Assembly: GCA_035537255.1 (NCBI GenBank)
Contig: DATLMN010000065.1
Location: forward strand, 826-64,825
From: Pyrinomonadaceae bacterium
Lineage (GTDB): Bacteria; Acidobacteriota; Blastocatellia; Pyrinomonadales; Pyrinomonadaceae
Reading direction: 5' to 3'
Length of the DNA: 64,000 nt
Below are positions 36,100-50,163 of this stretch, one piece after another; position 1 is the first letter of the stretch; the number at the start of each line of letters is the position of its first letter. The notes under the pieces were generated by a model. The model worked only from the letters and a program-made list of their open reading frames with translations. It searched no databases and was not told the DNA's origin. The translations under genes were made by a program, and so were the position numbers.

Positions 36100-36265
36100 A
36101 GCGATTGTTTCTCCTTCTTATCAATAAAGCGAGCGGCAGATAAATACGTTTGATCTGACGCGCTCCGGTCTTACTTTATGGCCTTGATTAAAATGTTCTA
36201 CGGAGAGACTACCCAAAGCGTTTCGTTCGGGGCAAGCTTGGAGAGGGCTTTTCCACCCCGCCCGT

Positions 36266-37630
36266 CTAGAAATTTTCCAGCACGAGGAGCGCCGTTTCGC
36301 CGCCGCCCGAAGAGACGTTGCAGAGCGAAGAGGCCGAGAGACGCACCAGCGCGCCCTCTACACGGTTGAGAAAGAGGAAGGGATTGAAGTCTATAAACAT
36401 CTCGTCTGTGAAGAGGCTGTCCGCCGTGAACATCGCCATGCGCGCTTTCTCGACCATGACGCGCTCCTGCACAACGAAGGAGTTTTGGAGAGCGAGCCGG
36501 ATGGCTTCCTCCCAAGCAGAGGTATCCGTCTCCCAGCCGATCACCACGCCATGACCGCCGTAATCGTCATTGGGTTTGATGACCAGACGCTCGCGCTCTT
36601 TCAGCAACACATCCAGAAGATCACGCTCCGCGCCACGGTAGGTCGTTTTACCGTCGCGCACGCGCCGCGTCCAGGGAATATGTTTAAGTATGCAGGCAAC
36701 CTGCTCCGGCGTGAACAGATAATGGTACGCTGGATCGCTGAGGATGGCGAAGCCCGCCTTCTTGTGGGCCAACTTTGTGCGGAAGGAGTTAATCAGGCAG
36801 ACCTTGTGCTCAATGTAAGCGCGCGCGAGCGGATGCGTCTCGTCGAACTTTTCCAGAAATTCATGAATAATGACGCGCTTGTAAAGAATATCTATCCGAA
36901 AATCTCCGGCGCGAAGCTCCTGGCCGTCGTATTCAAGAGAGCGCGGGTCTGCGATGATTGTCCTGTAGCCTTCCGCTTCAAAGTAATCTTTCAAAATCTC
37001 GAACTCGCTGGCGGTCGAGACGCCCTCCCAGTCGACGATGGCGATCTGCGCGTGCTCGCTCCTGTGGCCGCTCCACTCGCGATAGGTTTCGAGCATCGCA
37101 CGCAGTAGAGCTTGGTGCGGGCGCGGCAGCCAGTGTGCGCCGTGCTCTGCGAGAAACTCTTTCATGTGCGGTAGACCAAAGAGCACCTTTTCAAGCTGCA
37201 TCTGGTCGGCAATCCCCGCTGGGCTTTCGGCGTTGTATTCCAGAAACTGAAAATCCTCGCCGTCAAGATAAGCATCCAGACGGCTGGTCACGCAAAGCGT
37301 CTGGTATCCGGGATCGAAGCGCGCCATTCTCTTTTCGCGCTCGGTCAAATCCAGCTCGTTCATCAGCGCATCATCCTGAAGCGCCGCGTGGGCCAACCGC
37401 TCAAAGGCTGCGGCGAGCGTCTCTGCGGCACGCGCGACGCGCGTGTACTGCGAGCGCGAGAGAATCAGCGGGCGAAGAAAGGGACACGTGGGGCGCTCGT
37501 CATGCAGCAGTCCAAGCTCGCGCTGCGTATTGAGCAACTGCTCGAACAGTGGTGGGCCAATCGAGGCATCGCGCGCGATGCGCTCGTCCAGCCGACTAAC
37601 GGTTGAAGCAAGCTGCTTCGGGTTTGACAT
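36266..37630 (-). CDS. Circularly permuted ATP-grasp family protein
   Basis: ..RLDAYLDGEDFQFLEYNAESPAG.. and C-terminal ..ALVRLSASSLCNVSSGGGETALLV resemble the CP-ATP-grasp (DUF404/407-type) pattern. ATG at 37630 with GGAG upstream. Confidence 0.55.
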   Translation of the reverse strand: MSNPKQLASTVSRLDERIARDASIGPPLFEQLLNTQRELGLLHDERPTCPFLRPLILSRSQYTRVARAAETLAAAFERLAHAALQDDALMNELDLTEREKRMARFDPGYQTLCVTSRLDAYLDGEDFQFLEYNAESPAGIADQMQLEKVLFGLPHMKEFLAEHGAHWLPRPHQALLRAMLETYREWSGHRSEHAQIAIVDWEGVSTASEFEILKDYFEAEGYRTIIADPRSLEYDGQELRAGDFRIDILYKRVIIHEFLEKFDETHPLARAYIEHKVCLINSFRTKLAHKKAGFAILSDPAYHYLFTPEQVACILKHIPWTRRVRDGKTTYRGAERDLLDVLLKERERLVIKPNDDYGGHGVVIGWETDTSAWEEAIRLALQNSFVVQERVMVEKARMAMFTADSLFTDEMFIDFNPFLFLNRVEGALVRLSASSLCNVSSGGGETALLVLENF

Positions 37631-37746
37631 ATTCGAAGGTCTCCAACGGGGGAGCAGGAAGAGGCAGATCATGCGAGGCGACGGACGGTACTAATCTAAC
37701 GGACTATGACGCTCTTGCTAAACCTTATCACAGAATCATCTTGGCT

Positions 37747-37947
37747 GCTTCAGCAATCGAAGCAAGAGTGGTAGGTCAATTTGAATAATTGAATAAGCAT
37801 TGCACCAGAGACTCACCACAGAGACACAGAGGACACGTAGATGACACAGAGAGTCAGTATCACTCAAACCTCCGTGCTTCCTCTGTGCCTCTGTGGTGAA
37901 TGGCAGCTTTCATCACTCTCAATTTCAAATTGACCCACTACTGAAGC
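37747..37947. repeat. Nested inverted repeat, family H-like core inside an outer palindrome
   Basis: Core CACCACAGAGACACAGAGGACACG ... CGTGCTTCCTCTGTGCCTCTGTGGTG. Outer arms AGTGGTAGGTCAATTTGAA / TTCAAATTGACCCACTACT. Confidence 0.75.
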
Positions 37948-38112
37948 GAGAGCGGCAGCCGTCTAAATTTCGGTGGCGGACGCCGAAGTAATAGTCTAAG
38001 ATTCCGGCCAAGCGATTCCCCTGTTTCCCTCTTTGATGTCAGGCCCAAGGGTTTGCCGCTCCTGACGGCGAACCCGATTCGATAATCCGCGCAAGGGGAA
38101 GAATCTTAACTT

Positions 38113-39555
38113 ATGCTGAGACGAAAAAGCGCTGCCACGCTGCTCATATTTTTGTTGATCCTGACACAGCCTTCCTGCCGTAGTCTTTTGGGCGACAGAA
38201 GCGCCGAGAGCGGCAAGACTGCGAGCGGAAGACCCGCGCCGCATTTTAAGCCTGGCTTTAATCTTTTCACGCCGGAGCAGGACATGGAGCTTGGCCGCCG
38301 CTCTGCGCAGCAGATCGCGCAGCAGGTGCCGCTCCTGCGCGACGACAGAATCAACGGTTACATACAGCAGCTCGGCAAACGGCTCGCTGGAAAAGCTCCG
38401 GGCTTTCCCTTCACTTACCAGTTCGCCGTCATCGCTACCAAAGAGATCAACGCCTTCGCGCTTCCAGGCGGTTACATCTTCGTCAACGCGGGCACGCTCG
38501 CCGCCGCCAAAAACGAGGGCGAGCTGGCTGGCGTCATCGCGCACGAAATCTCTCACGTCGCGCTGCGTCATGGGACTAACCAGGCATCTAAAGCATACGT
38601 CGCGCAGCGCGGCATAGACATCCTGCGCACCATCGCCGGCGGCAGCCAGAGCGCAGACGAGATTATTCAGACCATCGGCGGAGCGGGCGCGAACATGGTC
38701 TTTCTCAAGTTCGGCCGCACGGCAGAGACGCAGGCAGACATAGAGGGCGCGCACATCATGGCCGACACAGGCTATGACCCGCGCGACATGGCAAATTTTT
38801 TTAAGACTCTTCAGGAAAAAAGTCGCGGCCAGAGAGTGCCGGAAATGTTGAGCGATCATCCGGACCCGGGCAATCGCATCGAAAGCATCAACAGGGAGAT
38901 GGCGAAGCTGCGCCTGAGCCAGAATCCCATACACAACTCGAACGAGTTTCAACAGGCGAAGGCTCTGCTGACGGGCGGAGGCGGCGACGGCGCACTCAAT
39001 TCGTCGAGCCAGCCGACGCGCACTGGCCCAAGCGATCCCGGCGACAACAAACCCGGCGCGAGACCTACAGCGCCCTCCGCTTCTTTGCGCGAGTTTCAAT
39101 CACCCGACGGCGCGTTCGCACTGCGCTATCCCGATAATTGGGATGTAGTGACAGCCGATAATGTGCAGATGATCTTTGCTCCGCCCGGCGCGTACGGACA
39201 AAAAGACGAAGCAGTCTTTGTCACGCACGGTCTCTTTGTCGGCGCGGTCGCGCCCCCTGCAAGCGATCTGGAAACAGCCAACCGGCAATTTATACAGCAG
39301 CAGATTGAGATGAATCCTGATTTTCGTGTGCTGCGCGCACCTGAGGCCATCAACTTCGGCGGGAGACGCGGCTACGCCACGGTCGTCGGCGGCCCATCGG
39401 CCATCACGGGCGTGATGGAGATCGACATTATCCACACGACGGCCACGTCGGACGGAAAATTGTTCTACCTGATCGCGATGGCTCCCGAAGACGAGTTCGA
39501 GACGTACAGGCAGACCTTCGAGCAGATTATCGCGAGCCTTCGACTGGCTGGATAA
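38113..39555 (+). CDS. Secreted M48-family zinc metallopeptidase with C-terminal extra domain
   Basis: Signal peptide. HEISHVALRHG (HExxH) and downstream ..EADIEGAHIMADTGYDP. Confidence 0.85.
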   Translation: MLRRKSAATLLIFLLILTQPSCRSLLGDRSAESGKTASGRPAPHFKPGFNLFTPEQDMELGRRSAQQIAQQVPLLRDDRINGYIQQLGKRLAGKAPGFPFTYQFAVIATKEINAFALPGGYIFVNAGTLAAAKNEGELAGVIAHEISHVALRHGTNQASKAYVAQRGIDILRTIAGGSQSADEIIQTIGGAGANMVFLKFGRTAETQADIEGAHIMADTGYDPRDMANFFKTLQEKSRGQRVPEMLSDHPDPGNRIESINREMAKLRLSQNPIHNSNEFQQAKALLTGGGGDGALNSSSQPTRTGPSDPGDNKPGARPTAPSASLREFQSPDGAFALRYPDNWDVVTADNVQMIFAPPGAYGQKDEAVFVTHGLFVGAVAPPASDLETANRQFIQQQIEMNPDFRVLRAPEAINFGGRRGYATVVGGPSAITGVMEIDIIHTTATSDGKLFYLIAMAPEDEFETYRQTFEQIIASLRLAG

Positions 39556-39584
39556 GAGCAGTATAATGAGAAACTGAGGAGGCT

Positions 39585-40145
39585 TTGATAAGCGCCACTA
39601 TGAATAAGCTAATTCTTTCAATCGTCTTTCTGCTTTTGTGTTACCCGGCGGTAATGGCTCAACCTGCTGATGTACAGAAAACTGACGCACCCATATCGTT
39701 GCGCTTTGAATATGAGGATAAATGCGGCAGCCCTCTAGTTGAAAGTATGATTTGGTCATTGGTTGAAGGCACAGTTATCAAGGTCGTTGACGGTGATACC
39801 ATCTTAATGCTGACGAAAGAGAATAAACGTCGGCGGATTGATTTAGCTGCTGTTGATGCATCTGCCGCAGATGATGCTGCGCGCCGGATGCTTAATGAGC
39901 TTGTGTTGAACCGAGCAGTCAATGTGCTCGTTAATCCGAGCAACGTCAAATCCAAAAAAGTTTCCGGCGTTGTTAAGACAGTAGGAGCAGATGTCAATCG
40001 TGCTTTGATACAGGCTGGCGCAGCCCGTTATAAAGAACCAGCGCCATACAGCATGTCAAACCATGCATCTTGCGTTTATAGAATAACGGAGAGTGAAGCG
40101 CGGGAAGCAAAGCGCGGTTTATGGCAGACAGTTGTTTCCCGTTAG
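39585..40145 (+). CDS. Secreted staphylococcal-nuclease-like (SNase/OB-fold) protein, catalytic residues apparently missing
   Basis: VEGTVIKVVDGDTILM...GLWQ layout of thermonuclease homologues. The RL.GID.PE motif is replaced by IDLAAVDASA. The start is uncertain (TTG 39585 or ATG 39600). Confidence 0.5.
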   Translation: MISATMNKLILSIVFLLLCYPAVMAQPADVQKTDAPISLRFEYEDKCGSPLVESMIWSLVEGTVIKVVDGDTILMLTKENKRRRIDLAAVDASAADDAARRMLNELVLNRAVNVLVNPSNVKSKKVSGVVKTVGADVNRALIQAGAARYKEPAPYSMSNHASCVYRITESEAREAKRGLWQTVVSR

Positions 40146-40212
40146 TCAGCTCGAACGAAGCGCGGTCAATCCTGAAAGACTTCAGTACCGGCGAGTGGCG
40201 TAATGGAAAAGA

Positions 40213-41535
40213 GTGATGAGGAGAAAACTCATTTCAGCTTCTATGGCCGGGTTCTGTCTAATGGTTTGTCTAAGCGACGGCGCTTTACTCTCCGCGCCTC
40301 TCACACGGCGGAGCGCGCAAACCCTTAAAGAGAAGGAAGCGACAAAGCGCGACGCCTTTAATAATCGGATCGCAGAACTGAGGGCGCTTTACGAAGCGCA
40401 TCAATGGTTCAAGCTGCGTGATGCTGTACAGGCAACAGATGCGCCTGTGTTTTATCGCGGCGCTGTCGCTGCTGCTTTTAACGACATCAAGCAGGCGGAG
40501 AAGAGTCTTCAGGCAGTCATCAACTCCGCGCCGCAAGCAGGGCTGGTATCCGAGGCGCGCGAATTATTGATCAATACTTACATGCGTGCGGGGCTTTACA
40601 GGCAGTCTCTCTCAGAGACCGAACAGGCGCGTGTGCTGAAGCCGAATGATAACGGCCTGAAAAACGCGCGCATACTCTTCTCCACTTTCAGCCAATACCC
40701 GGAGCAGACTGTTTCAGCACGCCGCTTCTCCGAACTCCGCTACGCCATGAAGGAGGGCAATCTCTTTATCCCTGTGAAGGTCAACGGCAAGCAGGCCAGT
40801 TACATTGTTGACACGGGCGCAAACTTCTCACTGATCAGCGAGACGGAAGCCAAACGCCTGGGGCTTAACATCAGTGAGCGAAGCGGAGCCAGGATAGGCG
40901 ATTCGTCAGGCCTTGACTTAGATTTTCGCGTGGCCGTTGCAGACCGCCTGACAGTGGGTCGCATGCGGCTCAGACACGTCCCCTTTTTTGTGATGCGCGA
41001 CGATCAGCAGCCGTTTGTAGACCTTCCTGCGGGCGAGCGCGGAATCATCGGCCTGCCTGTGCTGCTGGCTTTCCAGACCGTGCGCTGGAATCGTGAAGGC
41101 AAGTTCGAGATCGGCTTTGCGCCGCGCGCGACGCCCACACGCAAATCCAATCTGTGCTTTGAAGGTCTACAGCCCATCGTCGAAGCGGAGTTCCGGCAGA
41201 GCAAGATCAATATATTTCTGGACACCGGCGCGACACACACGCGCGCTCTGCCTCTGTTTGCCAGAGAGTTCGCCGCCTTTGTTAACGAAGCCGGAAAGAA
41301 AGGCTCGCAGCGCGTGACTGGCGTCGGCGGTAGTGTGGATGTCGAGACCATACGGCTGCCCGAATTGAGGCTTCGCATCAACGGCTCAGAGGTCGCGTTG
41401 AGTCCCGCCGAAGTGCTTTTGAGGGAGACTGCTTCCGGCCTTAGCTGGTCTCACGTCTGGGCGGGTATGGACCTGCTCAATCAGGCGCGCGTAGTGACGC
41501 TCGATTTCAAGTCGATGACGCTTACCCTTGAGTAA
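40213..41535 (+). CDS. Secreted protein with two retropepsin-like aspartic protease domains
   Basis: Signal peptide and a helical N-domain. Two DTG motifs (YIVDTGANFSLIS and IFLDTGATHTRAL) about 130 aa apart. Confidence 0.7.
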   Translation: MMRRKLISASMAGFCLMVCLSDGALLSAPLTRRSAQTLKEKEATKRDAFNNRIAELRALYEAHQWFKLRDAVQATDAPVFYRGAVAAAFNDIKQAEKSLQAVINSAPQAGLVSEARELLINTYMRAGLYRQSLSETEQARVLKPNDNGLKNARILFSTFSQYPEQTVSARRFSELRYAMKEGNLFIPVKVNGKQASYIVDTGANFSLISETEAKRLGLNISERSGARIGDSSGLDLDFRVAVADRLTVGRMRLRHVPFFVMRDDQQPFVDLPAGERGIIGLPVLLAFQTVRWNREGKFEIGFAPRATPTRKSNLCFEGLQPIVEAEFRQSKINIFLDTGATHTRALPLFAREFAAFVNEAGKKGSQRVTGVGGSVDVETIRLPELRLRINGSEVALSPAEVLLRETASGLSWSHVWAGMDLLNQARVVTLDFKSMTLTLE

Positions 41536-41802
41536 ATCAACTAGAGACGCGCGCCTGACAACTCATTCAACCCCGACGCCTCTCTTAGCAAAGCTTTCAT
41601 CATCTCCCTCTACTGTCTGCAAGAATGTTTTTTGCGCGGCGCGCGTTGCTTCAGGCGACACGTTACCACCGTCATTTAATTAGACAAGCGTCAGAAAAAT
41701 ATTGCACCTCCAAGACTGCTTACTGATGAAACTCTCCATCCTTGGCGCAGTGATAATACCGGTATGGCTGTTGCTCCTCTGCTTGCCTGAGGAGGAATTT
41801 AT

Positions 41803-42744
41803 ATGAAAAGCGTGGCGCGTCTGAGATTATTATTCACCGTCGTTGCTGCTGTGCTGTTGTTGTCTGCTCTCACGCTGGCAATCCCGCAGCAGGATTCTAC
41901 AAGAACGGATTGGACGCCGCCCTCTTCACGCAAAGCGAAGACGCCTTTTGCTCCCAAGCCATTCGGCGGAGACAATATCTTCCGGGGCGAAGCCGAAGTT
42001 TGGCTGGCGGATGCCATCGAAAAACTGGAAGGCGGGATTTTTACACCCGTCGATGACAGGGCTGTCCCTGACTATGTCTCGCAAGTTGGCAACTATCTTG
42101 TTTCGCACTCGGTCGCTCCGACAAAGCAATACAAGTTCATCGTCACTACGGATTGGATGCCGGATGCCATGACGGCCGGAGGCGGACGCATTTATATCAG
42201 TCGTGGAATGCTCGAACTGCTCGAAAGCGAAGACGAACTAGCGGGCGTGCTGGCACACGAGATTGCTCACGACGCGTTCAGTCATGCCGCCAGGACTGTC
42301 ACGCGACAAATGTTCTGGATGACCGGAACGAGAAAAGTAAAAACGCCCGCTGAGGTCGAGGCTGCTCTGGAGAAATTATGGACTGAATATCAGAAGAAAC
42401 CGATAACAGCGATTGGCGAGAAGTTGTTAGGGTTCGCTCGGTTTGACGAGTTGGAAGCTGATCGCGCCGCTTTCTACAACCTTTATAAAGCTGGCTATAA
42501 CCCTTACGCCCTTGTCACTGTCTTAAAGCGAATGGCGCGGGAAGACAAGCAGGAGATGGGTCAGAATCAATACTACTTGTATCAATTTCTGGTTCTTCTC
42601 TTCGGCAATCACCCGCCTTCCGCCCAACGCTCGATGGCTATTTCGTGGGAATCGAACTTTCTCAAAATGCCAGACCGTGATTCTCGTCATAAAAGCGCAG
42701 CCTTTGATGCTATGAAGTTAAGAATTAAGAGTCTGCCGAAATAA
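41803..42744 (+). CDS. Secreted M48-family zinc metallopeptidase
   Basis: SD GAGGAGG, a signal peptide, and HEIAHDAFSH (HExxH) with downstream ..FDELEADRAAF. Confidence 0.8.
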   Translation: MKSVARLRLLFTVVAAVLLLSALTLAIPQQDSTRTDWTPPSSRKAKTPFAPKPFGGDNIFRGEAEVWLADAIEKLEGGIFTPVDDRAVPDYVSQVGNYLVSHSVAPTKQYKFIVTTDWMPDAMTAGGGRIYISRGMLELLESEDELAGVLAHEIAHDAFSHAARTVTRQMFWMTGTRKVKTPAEVEAALEKLWTEYQKKPITAIGEKLLGFARFDELEADRAAFYNLYKAGYNPYALVTVLKRMAREDKQEMGQNQYYLYQFLVLLFGNHPPSAQRSMAISWESNFLKMPDRDSRHKSAAFDAMKLRIKSLPK

Positions 42745-42943
42745 ATTTGCATCTTCTGTGTCAAGGCAGAGCCCGGATGCTCGAACAAAGCGCCACCGCT
42801 CAAAGCTTGCCTTCCATGCACGGTTCTCAGATTTCATCCGGCTTGTCGCTTTCGTCTGGCGGCGGGTTGCCTCTGTCATCCGGCGCTGGCATTTTGAGCC
42901 TCACGCGGATAATCTTATCTCCTACAATCGATTGTTCGGGTGA

Positions 42944-44320
42944 ATGCTTATGAAAAGAATCTTCATTGTGGCAGCGCTCTGCTGCTTTTTCCTGATTCCT
43001 TCAAAGGGCTACGCGTGTAGCTGCGCGACGGGTGATCCGGCTTCCGAATTTAATGACGCGAAGGCGATCTTCATCGGACAAATGCTCGGCGGGAATGAAA
43101 AGTTGTCCGTGAAAGACAGCAAAGGCAAATCCCATTCTATCGAAGCCGGGGACGTGCGTTTTATGGTGGAAGAAATCTTCAAGGGAGACGTGGCGGGCGA
43201 GACCACAATTCAGGTTGCCAGTCATAATGGTACGAGCTGTGGCCCTTATGGGCTCAAGCGTGGCGAGCGATACCTTGTTTACGTGTACAGCAGTGAGGAG
43301 GATGAAAAGATTCTTTACACGGGCGTTTGCACACGAACGGTGGCAGTTAGCAGCAACTATGCCAAAGAGGATTTGGATTTCCTGCGCAATCTTCCGGCAG
43401 CCGGAACAGGCGGTAATCTACAGGGAAGTATCTGGGCCGATCTGCGCGAAGGCGGAGCGACTCCGCTCCCGAACGTCAAAGTCAATATCCGCAACGCTGA
43501 CAATCAAGTCATAACGGTGAGCACCGACAAGGACGGCAAATTTGAGTTGAAGAAATTGAAGGCGGGCAAGTACAGAGTCGAACCAGAGTTCCCGGCAAAC
43601 TATACGAGTGAAAATGAATTTGCCGAAGTCAAAGTTGATGATCGAGGGACGGCCAGCGTAGGCTTTGAAGCCTACATCAACGGCAGAGTCTCAGGGCGCA
43701 TTATTGATCGCGAGGGCCAGGGCTTCAATTCAATATTTCTTCATCTGGTCGGAGGGGATAAATCTGTTTACGGACATTCTACCGGCGAGGGCGGAGGTTT
43801 CGAGGCGCAGGGTATTCCTCCGGGAGAATACGTCCTGTACCTTGAAATGCATCACGCCGATTACCAAAAGAACAGAAACTTCTATTACCCCGGAACTTTT
43901 CAGCGTGAAGAGGCGACGGTCATCAAAGTCGGCTTAGGGGAGAAGGTTGAAGGGATAGAGTTTCTTCTGCCCGACGAATTTAAGGTTCGCACCGTTGAAG
44001 GTCAGGTCGTGTGGGAAGACGGTCAGCCCGCCGCCGATGTGGAAGTAATATTGCTCTGCCCGGCCAGCGTCAAGCCGAATGGCTTTGTCGTTGAATTTAC
44101 CCCGAACCAGACACAAACCGATAAGCAGGGACGATTTCGGATTGAAGGCTTGACAGGCGAATCCTACTGGATTGAAGCACGCGGATCAAAAGCTGATGGC
44201 AAAAAGGACGAATTAATTGAAGCACATTCGCCGTCAAGAAAAATTATCTTGAGTGAAAATCTGAAAAACATCAGCCTCGTGTTGTCTGAGAGAGGGTTAG
44301 CGGGTGGCTGCGAAAAGTAG
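42944..44320 (+). CDS. Secreted protein: TIMP/NTR-like N-terminal module followed by three CarboxypepD_reg-like (transthyretin-like) domains
   Basis: The signal peptide ends ..SKGYA|CSC, so the mature protein starts Cys-Ser-Cys. Cys are at mature positions 1, 3, 75 and 105. Three repeats follow of the type G.V.D..G.P...V.V......T.TD..G.F....L..G.Y. Confidence 0.6.
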   Translation: MLMKRIFIVAALCCFFLIPSKGYACSCATGDPASEFNDAKAIFIGQMLGGNEKLSVKDSKGKSHSIEAGDVRFMVEEIFKGDVAGETTIQVASHNGTSCGPYGLKRGERYLVYVYSSEEDEKILYTGVCTRTVAVSSNYAKEDLDFLRNLPAAGTGGNLQGSIWADLREGGATPLPNVKVNIRNADNQVITVSTDKDGKFELKKLKAGKYRVEPEFPANYTSENEFAEVKVDDRGTASVGFEAYINGRVSGRIIDREGQGFNSIFLHLVGGDKSVYGHSTGEGGGFEAQGIPPGEYVLYLEMHHADYQKNRNFYYPGTFQREEATVIKVGLGEKVEGIEFLLPDEFKVRTVEGQVVWEDGQPAADVEVILLCPASVKPNGFVVEFTPNQTQTDKQGRFRIEGLTGESYWIEARGSKADGKKDELIEAHSPSRKIILSENLKNISLVLSERGLAGGCEK

Positions 44321-44362
44321 TTTTTCCAAAATCGTTGCTCGATTTATCAACCGGCTTTTCCA

Positions 44363-45685
44363 TCAAGAGTTTTGAGCTGTTGTGATGGCGACCGCTTGCT
44401 CTTTTTCCGTTTGCTCCGCCGTTGGCCCAAAGGGAAGCTCAATCGCGAAGGTCGAGCCCTCGCCCGGCTTTGAATCGACGCTGACTTCGCCGCCGTGCGC
44501 GCGCGCCAGATGCTTGACGATAGCGAGGCCAAGGCCCGTCCCACCCACATCGCGAGAGCGCGAGTGGTCAACCCTGTAGAAGCGCTCGAAGATGCGCGTC
44601 AGTTGCTCCGAACGAATGCCGTCGCCCGTGTCGCGCACAGTGATGCGGTCACGCTCGGCCTTCTGCTCATGCCTGATCGTGACCGTCCCACCCTCGCGAT
44701 TAAATTTGATCGCGTTATCGATCAGGTTGGTCAGCATCTGTTCCAGACGACGAGGGTCTGCGTAGACGCTCACTTCTGTTGGGACTTCATTGTTGATCGA
44801 GACGTGCGCGGCTTCGGCACGCGCGGCGAGTGCAGTCCTCACGTCTTCCACCAGCGGGCGCAAGCTAACAGGTTTGGGATGAACCGGAGATGTTCCGGCC
44901 TCTATGGCAGATAGTTCCAGAATGTCTTCGATGAGGCTGCGCATGCGCTCTGCGTTGCGGCGAATTACACTGAGGAAGCGCTGGTTATTTTCCGTGTCGT
45001 TGATCGCTCCGTCTTCTAGAGTCTCGACGAAGGCTAGGATCGCCGCGAGCGGCGTGCGCAGCTCGTGCGAGACGTTGGAGAGAAATTCCTGGCGCACGCG
45101 CTCCAATCTTTCGAGCCGCGTGATGTCGAAGAAGACGCCGACAGCCCCGCGCGTCTTTATATCATCGCTTAAGTGCAAAGGAATGACGCGCAGGCTGAAG
45201 ATTCTGCGATCTTCTGCCGCAAGCATCTCGACTCTGGCGTTGGCCTGCGTGTTCTGCTTCAGCGCCTCGGAAAATGCCGCATGGATGGACGGGTTGCGCG
45301 TCAGCTCAGACAAGGCTCTGTCTTCGAGCGGGCCTTCGACGTGGCTGAAAATCTCAAGCGCCGCGCGATTCGAGGCGACCACGAGCATCGCTTGATCGAC
45401 GACGACCATGCCTTCGCGCATGTTCTTCATCGTCGCTTCGAGCAGACGCGATGCGCGCTCGGCATCATCGACGGCGCTCCGGCCCTGCTCAAATACGCTC
45501 GAAGCCGCAACCCTTGAGCGACTCTTCTCATCCTGATTGCGAAAGAGCAGACGCCCGAAGGCGATGCCCGCGAGAATGGCGCAAAGCAGCGCCAGCCCCG
45601 TGCGCAGATTCAGGGGATGCGTCACCAGCAGCGCCGCGACACCCGCACCGCAAACAAAAAGCGCAAACCACAGACGAAGAGACAT
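44363..45685 (-). CDS. phoR: Phosphate-regulon sensor histidine kinase
   Basis: TM region, PAS-like segment, H-box SHELRTPLAAI and the HATPase motif GGTGLGLAIVKHL. Adjacent to phoB, phoU and pstSCAB. Confidence 0.8.
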   Translation of the reverse strand: MSLRLWFALFVCGAGVAALLVTHPLNLRTGLALLCAILAGIAFGRLLFRNQDEKSRSRVAASSVFEQGRSAVDDAERASRLLEATMKNMREGMVVVDQAMLVVASNRAALEIFSHVEGPLEDRALSELTRNPSIHAAFSEALKQNTQANARVEMLAAEDRRIFSLRVIPLHLSDDIKTRGAVGVFFDITRLERLERVRQEFLSNVSHELRTPLAAILAFVETLEDGAINDTENNQRFLSVIRRNAERMRSLIEDILELSAIEAGTSPVHPKPVSLRPLVEDVRTALAARAEAAHVSINNEVPTEVSVYADPRRLEQMLTNLIDNAIKFNREGGTVTIRHEQKAERDRITVRDTGDGIRSEQLTRIFERFYRVDHSRSRDVGGTGLGLAIVKHLARAHGGEVSVDSKPGEGSTFAIELPFGPTAEQTEKEQAVAITTAQNS

Positions 45686-45797
45686 AAAAATAAGGGATGA
45701 AGGATGAGGGATGAGGGATGAAGTAAAGACGGACTGAATGATTCAACACTTGGTCGGTTCAATCATTCATCCCTCACGCTGCCGCCCTCATCCCTTC
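45686..45797. repeat. Heptamer-arm inverted repeat, family C copy 2
   Basis: GGGATGA AGGATGA GGGATGA GGGATGA ... TTCATCCCTCACGCTGCCGCCCTCATCCC, with inner palindrome GAATGATT/AATCATTC. Lies between phoB and phoR. Confidence 0.9.
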
Positions 45798-46482
45798 TAT
45801 TGGCGCATCCGACAAAGCGATAGCCAACGCCGATGACTGTTTCCAGGCACGAGCCGCAGTCGCCAAGCTTTTGTCTAAGGCGACGAATATGTACGTCCAG
45901 AGTGCGCGTGTCGCCGTAATACTGGTGTCCCCAGACATCGTCCAGGAGTCGCTGGCGCGTCGCGACGCGACCGGCGCTCTTTGCCAGCATGGAGAGCAGC
46001 GCAAACTCCTTGCGTGTGAGCTTGACGCTCTCGCCGTCGCAAGTGACCTGCATATCTGCGAAATCAATCTGTAGACGACTGTCCTCGTAACGCGCGCTCT
46101 GATTATCGTCTGTGCGGCGCAACACTGCGCGAACGCGCGCCATCAGCTCGCGCACGGAGAAAGGCTTCGCAATGTAGTCGTCAGCGCCAAGATCAAGCCC
46201 GGCTACACGATCAGCCTCAGAGACGCGCGCCGTCAACATAATAATCGGGGTGCGTCGCGTCGCGGGCTCGCGCCTGAGGCGGCGGCACAACTCCATGCCG
46301 CTCATTCCCGGCAGCATCAAATCCAGAATCACGAGCGCCGGTGGACTCTTGACATCGAGCGCCGCCGCCAGGCCCTTTTCGCCCGTCTCGGCAATTCGCA
46401 CCTCAAGCCCGTCGCGCTCTAGATTGTAGCGCAGGCTCTCCGCAATATCCGCGTCATCTTCGACGATCAGTATAGGTCGCAT
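45763..46482 (-). CDS. phoB: OmpR-family response regulator (PhoB-like)
   Basis: Receiver domain ILIVEDD..DLMLPG..; winged-helix C-terminus ..IGVGYRF. The last ~11 codons and the stop are encoded by repeat C2. Confidence 0.8.
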   Translation of the reverse strand: MRPILIVEDDADIAESLRYNLERDGLEVRIAETGEKGLAAALDVKSPPALVILDLMLPGMSGMELCRRLRREPATRRTPIIMLTARVSEADRVAGLDLGADDYIAKPFSVRELMARVRAVLRRTDDNQSARYEDSRLQIDFADMQVTCDGESVKLTRKEFALLSMLAKSAGRVATRQRLLDDVWGHQYYGDTRTLDVHIRRLRQKLGDCGSCLETVIGVGYRFVGCANRRDEGGSVRDE

Positions 46483-46593
46483 AAAAGCAGGGATGAGGGC
46501 GGAGGGATGAGGGATGAAAGGGGTTGAGCGAATGATTCATTTGTAATGTGATTCAGCGGTTCATCCCTCATCCTTCATCCCTCATCCCTTCGT
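46483..46593. repeat. Heptamer-arm inverted repeat, family C copy 3
   Basis: GGGATGA GGGCGGA GGGATGA GGGATGA ... TCATCCC TCATCCT TCATCCC TCATCCC. Lies between phoU and phoB. Confidence 0.9.
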
Positions 46594-47253
46594 TCAGTTG
46601 CTGTGTTTGATAAAGGCGGCTTCGGTCATGTAAACGGTCAGCTCGCAGATGTCCGTGACGTAATCGCCGATGCGTTCGATGTGTTTGGCGACGAAGAGCA
46701 GTCGCGCGGCGCGCGTCGTCGTCGCAGGGTCTTGGGTCATCAGCTCGATCAGATCGTGAAAGATGCCATTATAGAGTTCGTCTATCTGGTCGTCCCGCGC
46801 GATGACTCTGCGCGCGGCCGCCGCATCATTGGTAGTGAAGGCGTTAAGTGCAGCATGCAGCATGCTGGCCGCGTGCTCTGCCATCAGCGGCAGATCGACG
46901 TGGGTTTTGAGTTGCGGCTCATCGTTAAGGTCAATGGTGGCGCGGGCGATGTTGCAGGCGTGATCGGCGATGCGTTCCAGGAGCGGCGTGATCTTCGCCA
47001 CGGAGATGACGAAGCGCAGGTCGCGCGCCGCCGGTTGACGCAGCGCGATGGTGTCGACGCAGAGACGATCTATTTCCAGCTCAAGTTGATCTATCTCGTC
47101 ATCGCCCGCGAGAACTTCACGCGCCGTCGCGCTATCGCGTTCGACCAGCGCGTACATAGCTCTCTGAAGCGCCGTCTCCGTCTCGCCGCCCAGCAGCAGC
47201 ACGCGGTCACGTAAAACGCCCAGCTCGCGATCAAGTAATCTATGCTGTTCCAT
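46594..47253 (-). CDS. phoU: Phosphate signalling complex protein PhoU
   Basis: 219 aa with the two PhoU repeats containing E/DxxxD-type motifs (..RIADHACNIA.. / ..RIGDYVTDIC..). Confidence 0.9.
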   Translation of the reverse strand: MEQHRLLDRELGVLRDRVLLLGGETETALQRAMYALVERDSATAREVLAGDDEIDQLELEIDRLCVDTIALRQPAARDLRFVISVAKITPLLERIADHACNIARATIDLNDEPQLKTHVDLPLMAEHAASMLHAALNAFTTNDAAAARRVIARDDQIDELYNGIFHDLIELMTQDPATTTRAARLLFVAKHIERIGDYVTDICELTVYMTEAAFIKHSN

Positions 47254-47347
47254 AACTCAATTTTGGATTTTAGATTTTGGATTAACGAACGGATTGAATG
47301 AAGCTGACGGCTCTATCTCTCAATCCAAAATCCAAAATCTAAAATTA
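47254..47347. repeat. Heptamer-arm inverted repeat, family A copy 3
   Basis: TTTTGGA TTTTAGA TTTTGGA ... AATCCAAAATCCAAAATCTAAAATT. Fills the pstB-stop to phoU-start gap. Confidence 0.9.
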
Positions 47348-48205
47348 ACCAAACCGTCCGGTAATGTAATCCTCCGTCAGCTTCTCTTCGGGATTGGTGA
47401 ACATGCGCTCTGTGGCGTTGACCTCTATCAGTTTACCCAGCCAGAAGAAGGCCGTCTTGTCGGAGACGCGCGCCGCCTGCTGCATATTATGCGTAACGAT
47501 GACAATAGTGTACTGCTCTTTGAGGCCGACGATCAGCTCTTCGATCTTTTGCGTCGCAATCGGATCGAGCGCCGATGCGGGCTCGTCCATCAATACGACT
47601 TCGGGACGCACAGCCAGCGCACGCGCGATACAAAGACGCTGTTGTTGCCCGCCTGACAGACCGAGCGCTGATGATTTCAAACGGTCTTTCACTTCGGGCC
47701 AGAGCGCCGCATCCAGCAGCGCCTGTTCGACTCTCTCGTGCAGCTCCGCCTTGTTCGCCGCCAGTCGATTGATGCGCAGACCGTAAGCGACGTTGTCGAA
47801 GATGGATTTCGGGAACGGGTTAGACTTTTGAAAAACCATCCCGACTTTGCGACGCAGTTCGACGACATCCGTGTCGGGCGCGTAGATGTCTTGCCCGTCA
47901 ATCTCGATTATCCCTTCGGCGCGTGTGCCGGGAATGGTATCGTTCATGCGATTCAATGTGCGCAGGAACGTAGACTTGCCGCAGCCGGACGGCCCGATCA
48001 GAGCCATCACGCCGCGCTCAGGGATGTTCAGAGAGATATTGTAGAGCGCCTGCGCCCGGCCGTAAAAAAAGTTCAGCTCGCGTACGCCGATTTTTATCTC
48101 GGAAGGGGCGCGCTCCATTTGCTTGCTCACCCGTTCCCGCTCGTCATCAGGAAGTGATTCAGCCATACGGGGCACGCTCACCATTTTTTGAGCTGGCATT
48201 GACAT
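47345..48205 (-). CDS. pstB: Phosphate ABC transporter ATP-binding protein
   Basis: GPSGCGKST Walker [10 protein letters not shown] signature and VLMDEP Walker B. The N-terminal region is typical of PstB. ATG 48205 was chosen because the longer ORF would read through repeat E. Confidence 0.9.
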
Positions 48206-48213
48206 TTTAAATA

Positions 48214-48303
48214 CAGTGACAAGTGACGAGTGGCGACTGACAAGTAAGAAGTCAAAAGCTTTTTCACTGCTTGTCACTTGTCACTTGCCACTCTTCACTG
48301 CTT
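48214..48303. repeat. Heptamer-arm inverted repeat, family E
   Basis: ACAGTGA CAAGTGA CGAGTGG CGACTGA CAAGTAA ... CACTGCTTGTCACTTGTCACTTGCCACTCTTCACTG. Lies between pstA and pstB. Confidence 0.9.
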
Positions 48304-48304
48304 T

Positions 48305-49153
48305 TCAAACTTTCTGGCGCGTAAAGAAGCGCACGGCGATATTGATTAAGAGAATCATCGTCATCAGGACAAGCGTGGCGGCCCAGGCCTGCGCGTGCCA
48401 TTCATCGTAGGGCGAGATGGCGTAATTGTATATCTGCACGGTCAGGCTGGCGATGGGCTGATCCAGATAACCCTCGAAAAAGAAGCGGCTGCCAAACGCC
48501 GTAAACAAAAGCGGCGCTGTCTCGCCGGAGACGCGCGCGATGGCTAGCATCGCCCCCGTCGCAATGCCAGAGCTTGCGGCGGGCAGCACTACTCCCAACG
48601 TCACTCTCCACTGCGGCGCACCCAGGGCGAGCGCCCCCTCGCGCAAAGATGTCGGAACTAAGCGAATCATCTCTTCGGTCGTGCGCGTGACAATCGGAAT
48701 CATAATCAGCGCCAGAGCAATACCACCTGCGAGCGCTGAGAAATGTTTCTGCGGAATGACGATCAGCGTATAAACGAAGACGCCGACGACGATAGAAGGC
48801 ACGCCCGTCAGAGTGTCCGTGACGAAACGCACAGTATGACCAAACCAGCCGTCGCCGTACTCCGCCAGATAAATGCCCGCTGCGATTCCCACTGGCAGAC
48901 CGATCACAGAAGCCAGCCCGAGCAGCAAGAGCGTGCCCGTGATGGCATTGCCGATACCGCCGCCTTCGCCCACGGGGCGCGGCCTGTCCATCAGGAACTG
49001 TAGGTTGATCGAAGTAACGCCGCGCATCAATATGTAACCGAGGATAACTATCAGCACGGCACTGACCGTCAACGCACAAAAGGCCGCGAGCCCTGTCATC
49101 ACAGTGCTCACGATTCTTCGCCGACCGATTTTTCTTCCCTGCCGCTCTTTCAT
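48305..49153 (-). CDS. pstA: Phosphate ABC transporter permease PstA
   Basis: Polytopic permease with an EAA-type loop (..REGALALGAPQWRV..). ATG 49153 overlaps the pstC stop codon (ATGA). Confidence 0.9.
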   Translation of the reverse strand: MKERQGRKIGRRRIVSTVMTGLAAFCALTVSAVLIVILGYILMRGVTSINLQFLMDRPRPVGEGGGIGNAITGTLLLLGLASVIGLPVGIAAGIYLAEYGDGWFGHTVRFVTDTLTGVPSIVVGVFVYTLIVIPQKHFSALAGGIALALIMIPIVTRTTEEMIRLVPTSLREGALALGAPQWRVTLGVVLPAASSGIATGAMLAIARVSGETAPLLFTAFGSRFFFEGYLDQPIASLTVQIYNYAISPYDEWHAQAWAATLVLMTMILLINIAVRFFTRQKV

Positions 49154-50163
49154 GTCGCCCTCGCCGTGCCGCTCGTCCCACGCGTCACGCTCCACACCAG
49201 AAGCTTCGCCAGTCCGTTGACGATAAAAGTAACGACAAACAGAATAAGGCCGATCTCGACCAGCGCGCTCAGGTACAGATCGCCGGTTGCTTCCGTAAAC
49301 TCGTTGGCGATGACGGACGCTATTGTGTAAGAGGGCGCAAAGAGCGAGGCGCTGATCTCCGGTCGATTGCCTATGACCATCGTGACGGCCATCGTCTCAC
49401 CTATGGCGCGTCCCAGCCCCAGAATAATTGCGCCCGCTATTCCCGAAGCGGCGTTAGCCAGCACGACTCTGGTCATCTCCCAACGTGTTGCGCCGAGCGC
49501 AAGCGCCGCCTCGCGCTGCGACGTGGGCACTGCCGAGAGCACATCGCGCACGACCGCCGTGATGATCGGCGTAATCATGATGGCGAGAATGATACCGCCC
49601 GTCAGGAGCCCTATGCCCGTGATGGGCCCACTGAAGAGCGGCAGCCATCCGAGATAGCTTTGAAGCAACGGCTCGACGTGTATGCGCAGCAGGGGCGCAA
49701 GCACGAAGATGCCCCACAGCCCGTAGACGACGGAAGGAATCGCCGCCAGCAGCTCGACCAGAAAGGCCAGCGGGCGCGCAAGGCGCGGCGGCGCTTGCTC
49801 GACCAGAAAGATCGCGACGCCGAGCGAGAATGGCACGGCGATCAGCAGCGCGATCAGCGAAGAGACGACCGTCCCGTAGATAAAGGGCAGCGCGCCGAAC
49901 CGCCCCATCACAGGATTCCACTCGCGCCCCGTCAAAAAGCCAAAGCCGAACTCGCGCAGAGACAGACTGGAATTCGTAGCCATAGAGGCGATCATCAACG
50001 AGACGATCAATAAAATAAGCGCCGCGCTCGCCAGCAGGATCAGTCGAAACACGGCATCGCCCGTCGTGCCCGTCGCAGAGAGCGTGCGCCGCCATCTCCA
50101 CACACGCGCCAACGCGCCGTACGCGGCCGCAGGACTCTGAACATTTTGCTGCGAGCTAGACAT
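49150..50163 (-). CDS. pstC: Phosphate ABC transporter permease PstC
   Basis: Polytopic permease with ..QREAALALGATRWE.. Position is between pstS and pstA. Confidence 0.9.
   Translation of the reverse strand: MSSSQQNVQSPAAAYGALARVWRWRRTLSATGTTGDAVFRLILLASAALILLIVSLMIASMATNSSLSLREFGFGFLTGREWNPVMGRFGALPFIYGTVVSSLIALLIAVPFSLGVAIFLVEQAPPRLARPLAFLVELLAAIPSVVYGLWGIFVLAPLLRIHVEPLLQSYLGWLPLFSGPITGIGLLTGGIILAIMITPIITAVVRDVLSAVPTSQREAALALGATRWEMTRVVLANAASGIAGAIILGLGRAIGETMAVTMVIGNRPEISASLFAPSYTIASVIANEFTEATGDLYLSALVEIGLILFVVTFIVNGLAKLLVWSVTRGTSGTARAT

Follow-up and report, generated by a model that had tools for sequence, protein, structure and literature searches.

Can a bacterial gene that lies beside a zinc peptidase gene encode an inhibitor built on the plan of the animal TIMPs (tissue inhibitors of metalloproteinases), and is the neighbouring peptidase its target? 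Both questions were raised by a 64,000 nt stretch (hereafter the window) of contig DATLMN010000065.1, which derives from a metagenome-assembled genome (MAG) of a soil member of the Pyrinomonadaceae (Acidobacteriota). A gene for a secreted TIMP-like protein occupies positions 42944-44320 of its forward strand and is given as 458 amino acids in the open reading frame list. A preliminary description had proposed that the mature N-terminus of this protein resembles that of a TIMP, that the N-terminal module (N-module) is fused to three transthyretin-like (TTR-like) domains, and that the protein and an adjacent M48 peptidase form an inhibitor/protease pair. The N-module proved homologous to the TIMP N-domain, with significance reached at the level of the family, and the position of the gene beside the M48 peptidase is incidental.

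Homology and fold of the N-terminal module

TIMP (PF00965) was the only Pfam family to match the N-module, with amino acids 24-129 of the precursor aligned to profile positions 2-107; the match stopped at position 107 of the 183 in the profile. The window protein scored 13.6 bits at full length and 16.6 bits when limited to amino acids 1-161, and so did not reach the threshold of 23.1 bits. A search with the N-module returned 26 close homologues, and 19 of the resulting 27 sequences matched Pfam TIMP singly (best E 1.4e-5), as did 17 of 58 divergent full-length relatives at E<=0.01 (best 2.8e-6), with full-strength precomputed PF00965 matches in some members (P0015 and P0124). The profile search suggested in the preliminary description was therefore sub-threshold for the window protein and significant in its relatives. 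No match to Pfam NTR (PF01759) was present among the families listed for the window N-module, or among the 25 families that most of the relatives matched.

A profile of the bacterial module, built from 135 sequences, was compared with four human N-TIMPs using hhalign run locally (TIMP-1 to -4, of which the N-TIMP-1 sequence was verified as 100% identical to PDB entry 1d2b_A). The family profile matched the human proteins with a probability of 96.8% (E 3e-10), compared to at most 1.8% for the controls, namely a TIMP profile in reverse and 20 profiles with shuffled columns. The alignment paired Cys1 with Cys1, Cys3 with Cys3, Pro8 with Pro8, Ala11-Phe12 with Ala11-Phe12, the motif FKG with YKG, Cys75 with Cys70 and Cys105 with Cys99, so that the four cysteines coincide with those forming disulfides 1-70 and 3-99 in TIMP-1, as had been suggested. 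The window sequence alone gave an hhalign probability of 2.5%, so that the match first made by eye is valid only through the family. Sequence identity to the TIMPs was 13-18%. Searching the PDB with the single mature module (phmmer) gave no match, and hmmsearch of the family profile against PDB sequences recovered TTR-like domains only (SdrD and NOMO) and no TIMPs, which indicates that comparison of profile to sequence is too insensitive here and that profile-profile and fold searches were needed.

The mature N-module was modelled by AlphaFold2 with a predicted local distance difference test score (pLDDT) of 91.5 and a predicted template modelling score (pTM) of 0.85. When this model was searched against the PDB with Foldseek, the best 17 matches were all to TIMP-1, TIMP-2 or the NTR domain of PCOLCE (probability 1.0, E 3e-5 to 5e-3, template modelling (TM) score ~0.5); below these were generic OB folds with TM ~0.3, and agrin NtA was also found. 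An OB/NTR fold, on which the comparison with TIMPs in the preliminary description hinged, was thus found by AlphaFold2 and Foldseek, and the sequence-profile, profile-profile and structure searches agree on TIMP/NTR homology.

The TIMP/NTR-like OB-fold module spans mature residues 1-129 (43016-43402, forward strand, as for all features of the protein) and contains Cys75 (in TSCG) and Cys105 (in GVCTRT). The proposed fusion to three transthyretin-like domains was upheld by CarboxypepD_reg (PF13620), which matched in three stretches with 77.5 bits against a threshold of 32.3; SpaA matched with 52.9 bits (threshold 23.1), and SdrD_B and Big_1 were also among the Pfam matches. TTR-like domain 1 (CarboxypepD_reg/SpaA type) covers precursor amino acids ~157-245 (43412-43678), as judged from CarboxypepD_reg at amino acids 173-234, SpaA at 171-239 and the strand pattern of the model. 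Domain 2, at amino acids ~248-341 (43685-43966), corresponds to a CarboxypepD_reg stretch and to beta-sandwich strands in the model. Domain 3, at amino acids ~348-447 (43985-44284), carries Cys348 of the mature numbering and is matched by Pfam TTR-52, DUF4198 and DUF6795 (amino acids 351-414). The full-length AlphaFold2 model (pLDDT 94.7, pTM 0.81) indicates a rigid four-domain body. A CarboxypepD_reg/TTR-like match was present in 58/58 full-length relatives, and the layout of N-module and three TTR-like domains (~455-480 amino acids) is kept across the Acidobacteriota. Foldseek with the full-length model found pilin and adhesin stalks (CnaB/prealbumin-type) at domain level only (TM <=0.26), which is uninformative on function.

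The signal peptide junction and the cysteines

A Sec signal peptide is predicted at 42944-43015 (amino acids 1-24), with MLMKR as the n-region, IFIVAALCCFFLI as the h-region and PSKGYA as the c-region, in which Gly stands at -3 and Ala at -1. Cleavage by signal peptidase I (SPase I) is predicted after Ala24 from the (-3,-1) rule and from family conservation. The junction reads PSKGYA followed by CSCATGDP, so that Cys1 directly follows the predicted site; Cys1-Ser2-Cys3 (43016-43024) would form the mature N-terminus and be the equivalent of the TIMP inhibitory tip. Gene callers use an alternative start at Met3 (42950), giving a 456 amino acid product and leaving the mature numbering unchanged; an identical 456 amino acid product was also called on the independent JGI contig L047. 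The first four cysteines of the protein, at precursor positions 25, 27, 99 and 129, are mature residues 1, 3, 75 and 105, and two more, at mature positions 348 and 432, bring the total to six. On these points the translated frame agrees with the GYA/Cys1 start and the spacing given in the preliminary description, and 1d2b_A likewise agrees with the TIMP-1 spacing of 1, 3, 70 and 99 cited there.

Conservation was counted in 135 divergent modules and in 149 N-terminally complete members. In the former, Cys1 was conserved in 96%, Cys3 in 100%, Cys75 in 98% and Cys105 in 97%, and residue 2 was Ser in 99 and Thr in 8 modules (79% Ser/Thr), as in TIMPs. The first residue of the module lay at a median precursor position of 26. 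C-x-C stood directly at the end of the signal peptide in 145 of the 149 complete members, which agrees with the prediction of Cys1 as first mature residue, and the start whose loss in orthologues would have spoken against the TIMP comparison is therefore kept. The -1 residue was A, G or S in 147/149 members, and a hydrophobic h-region was seen in all 149. At -3 the members had A, V, T, I, S or G, with Leu in 1/149, and at -2 the listed sequences frequently had a bulky or charged residue (Y, F, H, R or N), the window protein having K-G-Y-A before the cysteine. With Leu almost absent at -3 and the -2 residue often bulky or charged, the pattern is the signature of SPase I and not of a lipobox. 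That the junction has no spacer in such divergent members argues more strongly than anything else for a functional importance of a free N-terminus at Cys1.

Each of the six mature cysteines in the window protein can be given a partner: two pairs follow from the TIMP register and Cys348-Cys432 from covariation, since among the 58 full-length relatives both of the latter were present in 15, neither in 43 and only one in none. Cys348 (44057-44059) and Cys432 (44309-44311) would join TTR-like domain 3 to the C-terminal GGCEK tail, and this pair occurs mainly in the subclade without Cys9 and Cys212. Those two residues, Cys9 (in PCEAF) and Cys212 (in DRGC, TTR-like domain 1), also covaried without exception (45 both, 13 neither, 0 discordant, in the same 58 relatives), which points to an inter-domain disulfide by which the head would be fastened to the stalk through its N-terminal segment. 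Cys9 is paired with Cys212 by covariation in 66-78% of relatives; P0015, P0020 and 43 others carry both residues. Both have been lost in the subclade of the window protein, which has Ala9 (43040-43042) and Thr212 (43649-43651).

The number of cysteines was even in 45 of the 58 members. Cys1 is replaced by Ser, Asn or Thr in five members (P0076, P0089, P0104, P0106 and P0135), each of which lacks one further cysteine (Cys75 in 2, Cys105 in 3). That Cys1 is always lost together with another cysteine supports a disulfide-bonded Cys1, with the partner not settled by this count; these five members may be natural non-inhibitory or rewired variants. A catalytic role for Cys1, as the N-terminal nucleophile of an Ntn-hydrolase-type enzyme, was considered and rejected, as the fold is OB and not alpha-beta-beta-alpha and the cysteines are accounted for as disulfides.

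Gene neighbourhood and family

The preliminary description was correct in placing an M48 peptidase gene with an HExxH motif upstream at a distance of 199 nt. This gene, designated M48b (41803-42744, forward strand; HEIAH, Pfam Peptidase_M48 E 2.9e-20), is a neighbour of the TIMP-like gene and at most a putative partner. Several features of the locus would suit a cognate pair: the two genes are co-directional and lie downstream of four other secreted hydrolase genes, the same arrangement next to M48b was seen on the independent contig L047 (which encodes the identical protein), and no terminator-like site was found between them. A sigma-70-like promoter match does, however, lie inside the gap (42886-42913, forward strand, 30 nt upstream of the start codon); it is weak (9/12 consensus matches), and the consensus scan of the region returned four sites against 2.1+/-1.5 expected.

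Comparison with other loci did not bear out the proposed pairing with M48b, or with the other M48 and M16 peptidases of the window. Homologues of either window M48 were found within +/-8 kb in 0 of 34 related loci, including that of the closest orthologue (68% identity, full length), and an M16 homologue was near the TIMP-like gene in 1 of the 34. In a Pfam census of 115 flanking genes no family occurred in more than 3 genes, and the 25 families listed included no metallopeptidase; other gene contexts of the relatives included EF-P, VWA, a KaiC-like ATPase and an amidohydrolase. Conversely, there was no TIMP-like neighbour at any of the M48b orthologues (89%, 81% and 76% identity). The closest homologues of the TIMP-like protein are 66-70% identical, compared to 88-91% for M48b, which indicates that the two genes have different histories.

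The origin of the adjacency is seen in L039, the syntenic relative closest to the window, which is colinear with window positions 34025-50000 at 83-90% nucleotide identity and has the order M16, ATP-grasp, M48a, Asp protease, M48b, and then PhoR, PhoB, PhoU and Pst. A 1.6-kb segment of the window (42763-44362), comprising the TIMP-like gene and short flanks, corresponds to 15 bp there (in blastn, L039 6874-7957 matched window 41677-42762 and L039 7973-13556 matched window 44363-50000), and M48b directly adjoins PhoR. The adjacency to M48b is thus due to a lineage-specific indel, and M48b is therefore not the specific target of the protein. At the ends of segment 42763-44362 neither direct nor inverted repeats were found, nor a target-site duplication, and a mobile-element origin of the indel was rejected on these grounds. 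Its polarity leans towards insertion in the window lineage over deletion in L039, given the low GC content of the gene (0.508, compared to 0.567 for the window) and a similar indel nearby, but the GC content of M48b is likewise low (0.513). The nearby indel is a secreted SNase-like gene (39585-40145, GC 0.465), which is reduced to 22 bp in L039 and constitutes a second accessory indel in the same block of secreted hydrolases.

Other genes of this block were also noted. M48a (38113-39555) encodes a 480 amino acid protein, BepA-like according to NCBIfam, with a C-terminal PsbP-like domain (PF01789, amino acids 441-477, E 4.6e-6), and this fusion is also kept in L039. On the reverse strand, 33133-37672 includes a 988 amino acid M16 peptidase containing a long Gly/Ser/Asn linker of low complexity. 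A 468 amino acid protein adjoins the M16 peptidase; its L039 orthologue has a faint CP_ATPgrasp_2 match, and the pair is kept in L039.

When 1.84 billion cluster representatives were searched with a profile, 5466 proteins were returned at E<=1e-3, each representing a 50%-identity cluster, and 481 at E<=1e-10. Nearly all loci with relatives belonged to Acidobacteriota (Pyrinomonadaceae/Blastocatellia, Bryobacteraceae and Terriglobia), and members are annotated publicly as 'prealbumin domain-containing protein' or 'hypothetical protein'. The gene behaves as an accessory, fast-evolving, stand-alone member of this family.

Shorter forms of the protein were also encountered. Variants of ~115-180 amino acids, on independent contigs (L009 7926-8447; P0018, P0019, P0026 and P0053), consist of the first ~90 residues of the N-module joined to the last ~60 of TTR-like domain 3, with loss of Cys105. 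In a Pyrinomonadaceae MAG a short TIMP-like paralogue of 178 amino acids (L006 6302-6838, hmmsearch E 7e-10) lies ~1 kb upstream of a full-length gene. P0124 (L043/L044 5001-5615) is a stand-alone 204 amino acid member with a full-strength Pfam TIMP match, present in two NCBI assemblies; the contig numbering of L043/L044 suggests very large assemblies, and its flanking genes (amidohydrolase, isochorismatase and cupin) look bacterial. There was no protease gene among the neighbours of the short stand-alone members P0124 and P0166. A VWA-domain gene (L037 311-1684, Pfam VWA) ends 6 nt before a TIMP-like gene, and a VWA-domain protein, assigned by eye from its sequence, is encoded directly upstream of another (L009 6371-7897); VWA is absent from the 25 families listed in the census of 115 genes.

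Proposed mechanism and comparison with known systems

On the present evidence, which is that of sequences and models, we consider the chances slightly better than even that the protein acts as a wedge inhibitor of zinc endopeptidases in the manner of TIMPs, as an orphan without an assigned target. It would be exported by the Sec pathway, contain disulfide bonds and reside in the cell envelope or outside the cell, its three transthyretin-like beta-sandwich domains forming a rigid stalk for the TIMP-like head. We infer that cleavage by SPase I after Ala24 would leave Cys1 with a free alpha-amino group, and that the disulfides Cys1-Cys75 and Cys3-Cys105 would tie the segment Cys1-Ser2-Cys3-Ala4 to the loop Thr73-Ser74-Cys75, forming a rigid wedge like that of a TIMP. 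This wedge would enter the active-site cleft of a zinc endopeptidase, where the amino and carbonyl groups of Cys1 would chelate the catalytic zinc and Ser2 would point into S1', with the TTR-like stalk positioning or anchoring the head. The role of such a protein may be protection of the envelope or regulation of secreted metalloproteases.

A number of points weigh against this mechanism. Many NTR modules (those of netrins, C345C, sFRP and PCOLCE) are not inhibitors, and to our knowledge TIMPs inhibit metzincins and not M48 or M16 enzymes. No protease neighbour is conserved, and hence no target is indicated; a literature search found no characterised bacterial TIMP-like member. The window protein by itself stays under the Pfam threshold (13.6-16.6 compared to 23.1 bits) and gives the low hhalign probability reported above, the Foldseek TM scores are only moderate (~0.5) with high root-mean-square deviations, the predicted cleavage site is derived from the (-3,-1) rule and family conservation, and the loss of Cys75 in two and of Cys105 in three of the members without Cys1 does not cleanly confirm a 1-75 pairing.

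Part of this evidence would also suit a non-inhibitory NTR/OB head, carried by a transthyretin/CnaB-like stalk, that binds a protein, polysaccharide or cell-wall ligand; this would be a surface protein of the adhesin or matrix type, and the position of Cys1 would then reflect only the stabilisation of the fold by N-terminal disulfides. Most animal NTR modules are binding modules, and agrin NtA and the PCOLCE NTR are among the Foldseek matches; the similarity of the full-length model to pilin and adhesin stalks, at domain level, the Pfam matches to SpaA, SdrD_B and Big_1, the lack of a conserved protease neighbour and the inter-domain disulfide that would fix head to stalk in most relatives all fit a protein of this kind. 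Non-inhibitory NTR modules, however, lie internally or at the C-terminus and have no need of a free N-terminus, whereas here there is no spacer in 145/149 members and residue 2 is typically Ser or Thr, and it is TIMP and not NTR that Pfam matches; we therefore regard a purely binding role as rather unlikely, if still a serious alternative.

The protein being the cognate inhibitor of M48b, or of the nearby M48a or M16 peptidase, as a gene pair is improbable in view of the loci compared above, and M48 enzymes are not, as far as we know, inhibited by TIMPs. It is more doubtful still that Cys25 of the precursor is the lipidated +1 cysteine of a signal peptidase II site, in which case an acylated N-terminus would leave no zinc ligand of the TIMP type. 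The signal peptide does end in a small residue with a cysteine right behind it, 55 of the 149 members fit a lipobox pattern when this is defined very permissively, and the TIMP-like protein of Listeria is a lipoprotein (PMC8235301). The lipobox L-[AS]-[GA]-C is not matched, however, by K-G-Y-A-C, and across the family -3 is Leu in a single member and -2 is often bulky or charged. Lipidation of Cys1 would furthermore leave an uneven number of thiols, whereas the cysteine count is even in 45/58 members, all six cysteines of the window protein can be paired, and members that have lost Cys1 have lost a second cysteine too. Least probable, and hardly credible in our view, is that an unrelated beta-rich domain has come to carry four similarly spaced cysteines by chance; the sub-threshold Pfam score and 2.5% hhalign probability of the window protein alone and the 13-18% identity to TIMPs would allow it, but three independent methods (sequence-profile, profile-profile with controls, and structure search) converge on TIMP, and the register extends beyond the cysteines to Pro8, Ala11-Phe12 and the FKG/YKG motif.

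Returning to TIMP-type inhibition, the wider proposal is that the window protein belongs to a large, fast-evolving acidobacterial accessory family of genuine TIMP-mechanism inhibitors, the first prokaryotic TIMPs, which would serve in soil as orphan shields against zinc endopeptidases, whether foreign or self-secreted; this is put forward tentatively, at a little under even odds. Were metalloprotease inhibition to be confirmed, the TIMP mechanism would extend to prokaryotes, and would either predate the Metazoa or have moved between bacteria and animals. The family would then be a source of stable scaffolds, held together by disulfides, from which metalloprotease inhibitors could be engineered, and would represent a layer of protease defence or protease control in a soil phylum that ranks among the most abundant. 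The conservation of the hallmarks across the family makes the existence of prokaryotic TIMPs directly testable. As the adjacency to M48b is not evidence of a cognate pair, screens for a target should be broad and not confined to M48 enzymes.

Among known systems the closest are the animal TIMPs (TIMP-1 to -4; PF00965, MEROPS I35). These are likewise secreted proteins in which Cys1 comes right after the signal peptide, as is predicted here, and the two groups share the Cys1-(Ser/Thr)-Cys3 start, the OB/NTR fold, the 1-70/3-99 cysteine register, Pro8, Ala-Phe at 11-12 and an aromatic-Lys-Gly motif. They differ in that the TIMP C-domain, with its three disulfides, is replaced here by three TTR-like domains, in that the window protein has neither an equivalent of C13-C124 nor the Cys9-Cys212 pair present in most relatives, and in that it is bacterial (Acidobacteriota) and falls under the Pfam TIMP threshold. 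Without the C-domain and the third N-domain disulfide, and being sub-threshold, the protein is best described as TIMP-like and not as a TIMP.

TIMPs are treated as a metazoan family in recent reviews and evolution papers (PMC4860685, PMC9409782), and the preliminary description knew of no functionally characterised prokaryotic inhibitor of this type. The latter statement stands to the extent that no characterised bacterial member was found, but bacterial TIMP-domain proteins were noted in 2010 and a Listeria pair was studied in 2021. Brew and Nagase (2010) are cited for the presence in 'various Eubacteria' of TIMP proteins consisting of a single domain (PMC3516229), and on that citation the existence of bacterial TIMP-domain proteins has been known since then. 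Those proteins probably belong to the same branch of the superfamily, P0015 and P0124 carrying full Pfam TIMP matches; they differ in being single-domain, as cited, whereas here an N-TIMP module is followed by three TTR domains in ~455-480 amino acids. Our literature search did not find the phrases 'bacterial TIMP' or 'prokaryotic TIMP', nor a description of the TTR architecture, the size of 5466 clusters, the concentration in Acidobacteria or the covarying inter-domain disulfide.

The Mtz/Tim pair of Listeria monocytogenes, a metzincin and a TIMP-like lipoprotein, is alike in that a bacterial TIMP-like fold is discussed alongside a metalloprotease (PMC8235301). Tim was likened to TIMP by predicted structure only (Phyre2 ~60%) and not by sequence, inhibition was not shown, and the authors of that study could find no previous report of bacterial proteins resembling TIMP; Tim has the lipobox LTAC, is cleaved by Mtz as a substrate and is consistently paired with the metzincin gene (PMC8235301). 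The protein described here differs from Tim in its sequence homology to TIMPs, in having C-x-C at a predicted SPase I site and in having no conserved protease partner. The potempins of Tannerella forsythia (PMC9890683) and APRin/Inh of Pseudomonas and Serratia (in PMC8235301) are operon-encoded and are also secreted or envelope proteins that inhibit zinc endopeptidases, an activity that the window protein would share, and APRin inserts an N-terminal segment into the active site (PMC8235301). Their folds are unrelated, and they are encoded beside the cognate peptidase, an adjacency which is not conserved here. The PCOLCE NTR (1uap) and agrin NtA (1jb3/1jc7/1pxu) are of the same fold class (Foldseek E 7e-4 to 1e-2), but are not at a processed N-terminus or are without a free Cys1-x-Cys3. 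Compared to all of these, what is new is that the bacterial branch is large, with thousands of 50%-identity clusters and a TTR-stalk architecture of its own, and that, as far as can be read from its sequences, it keeps every hallmark of the inhibitory mechanism, including the junction of signal peptide and Cys1 without a spacer.

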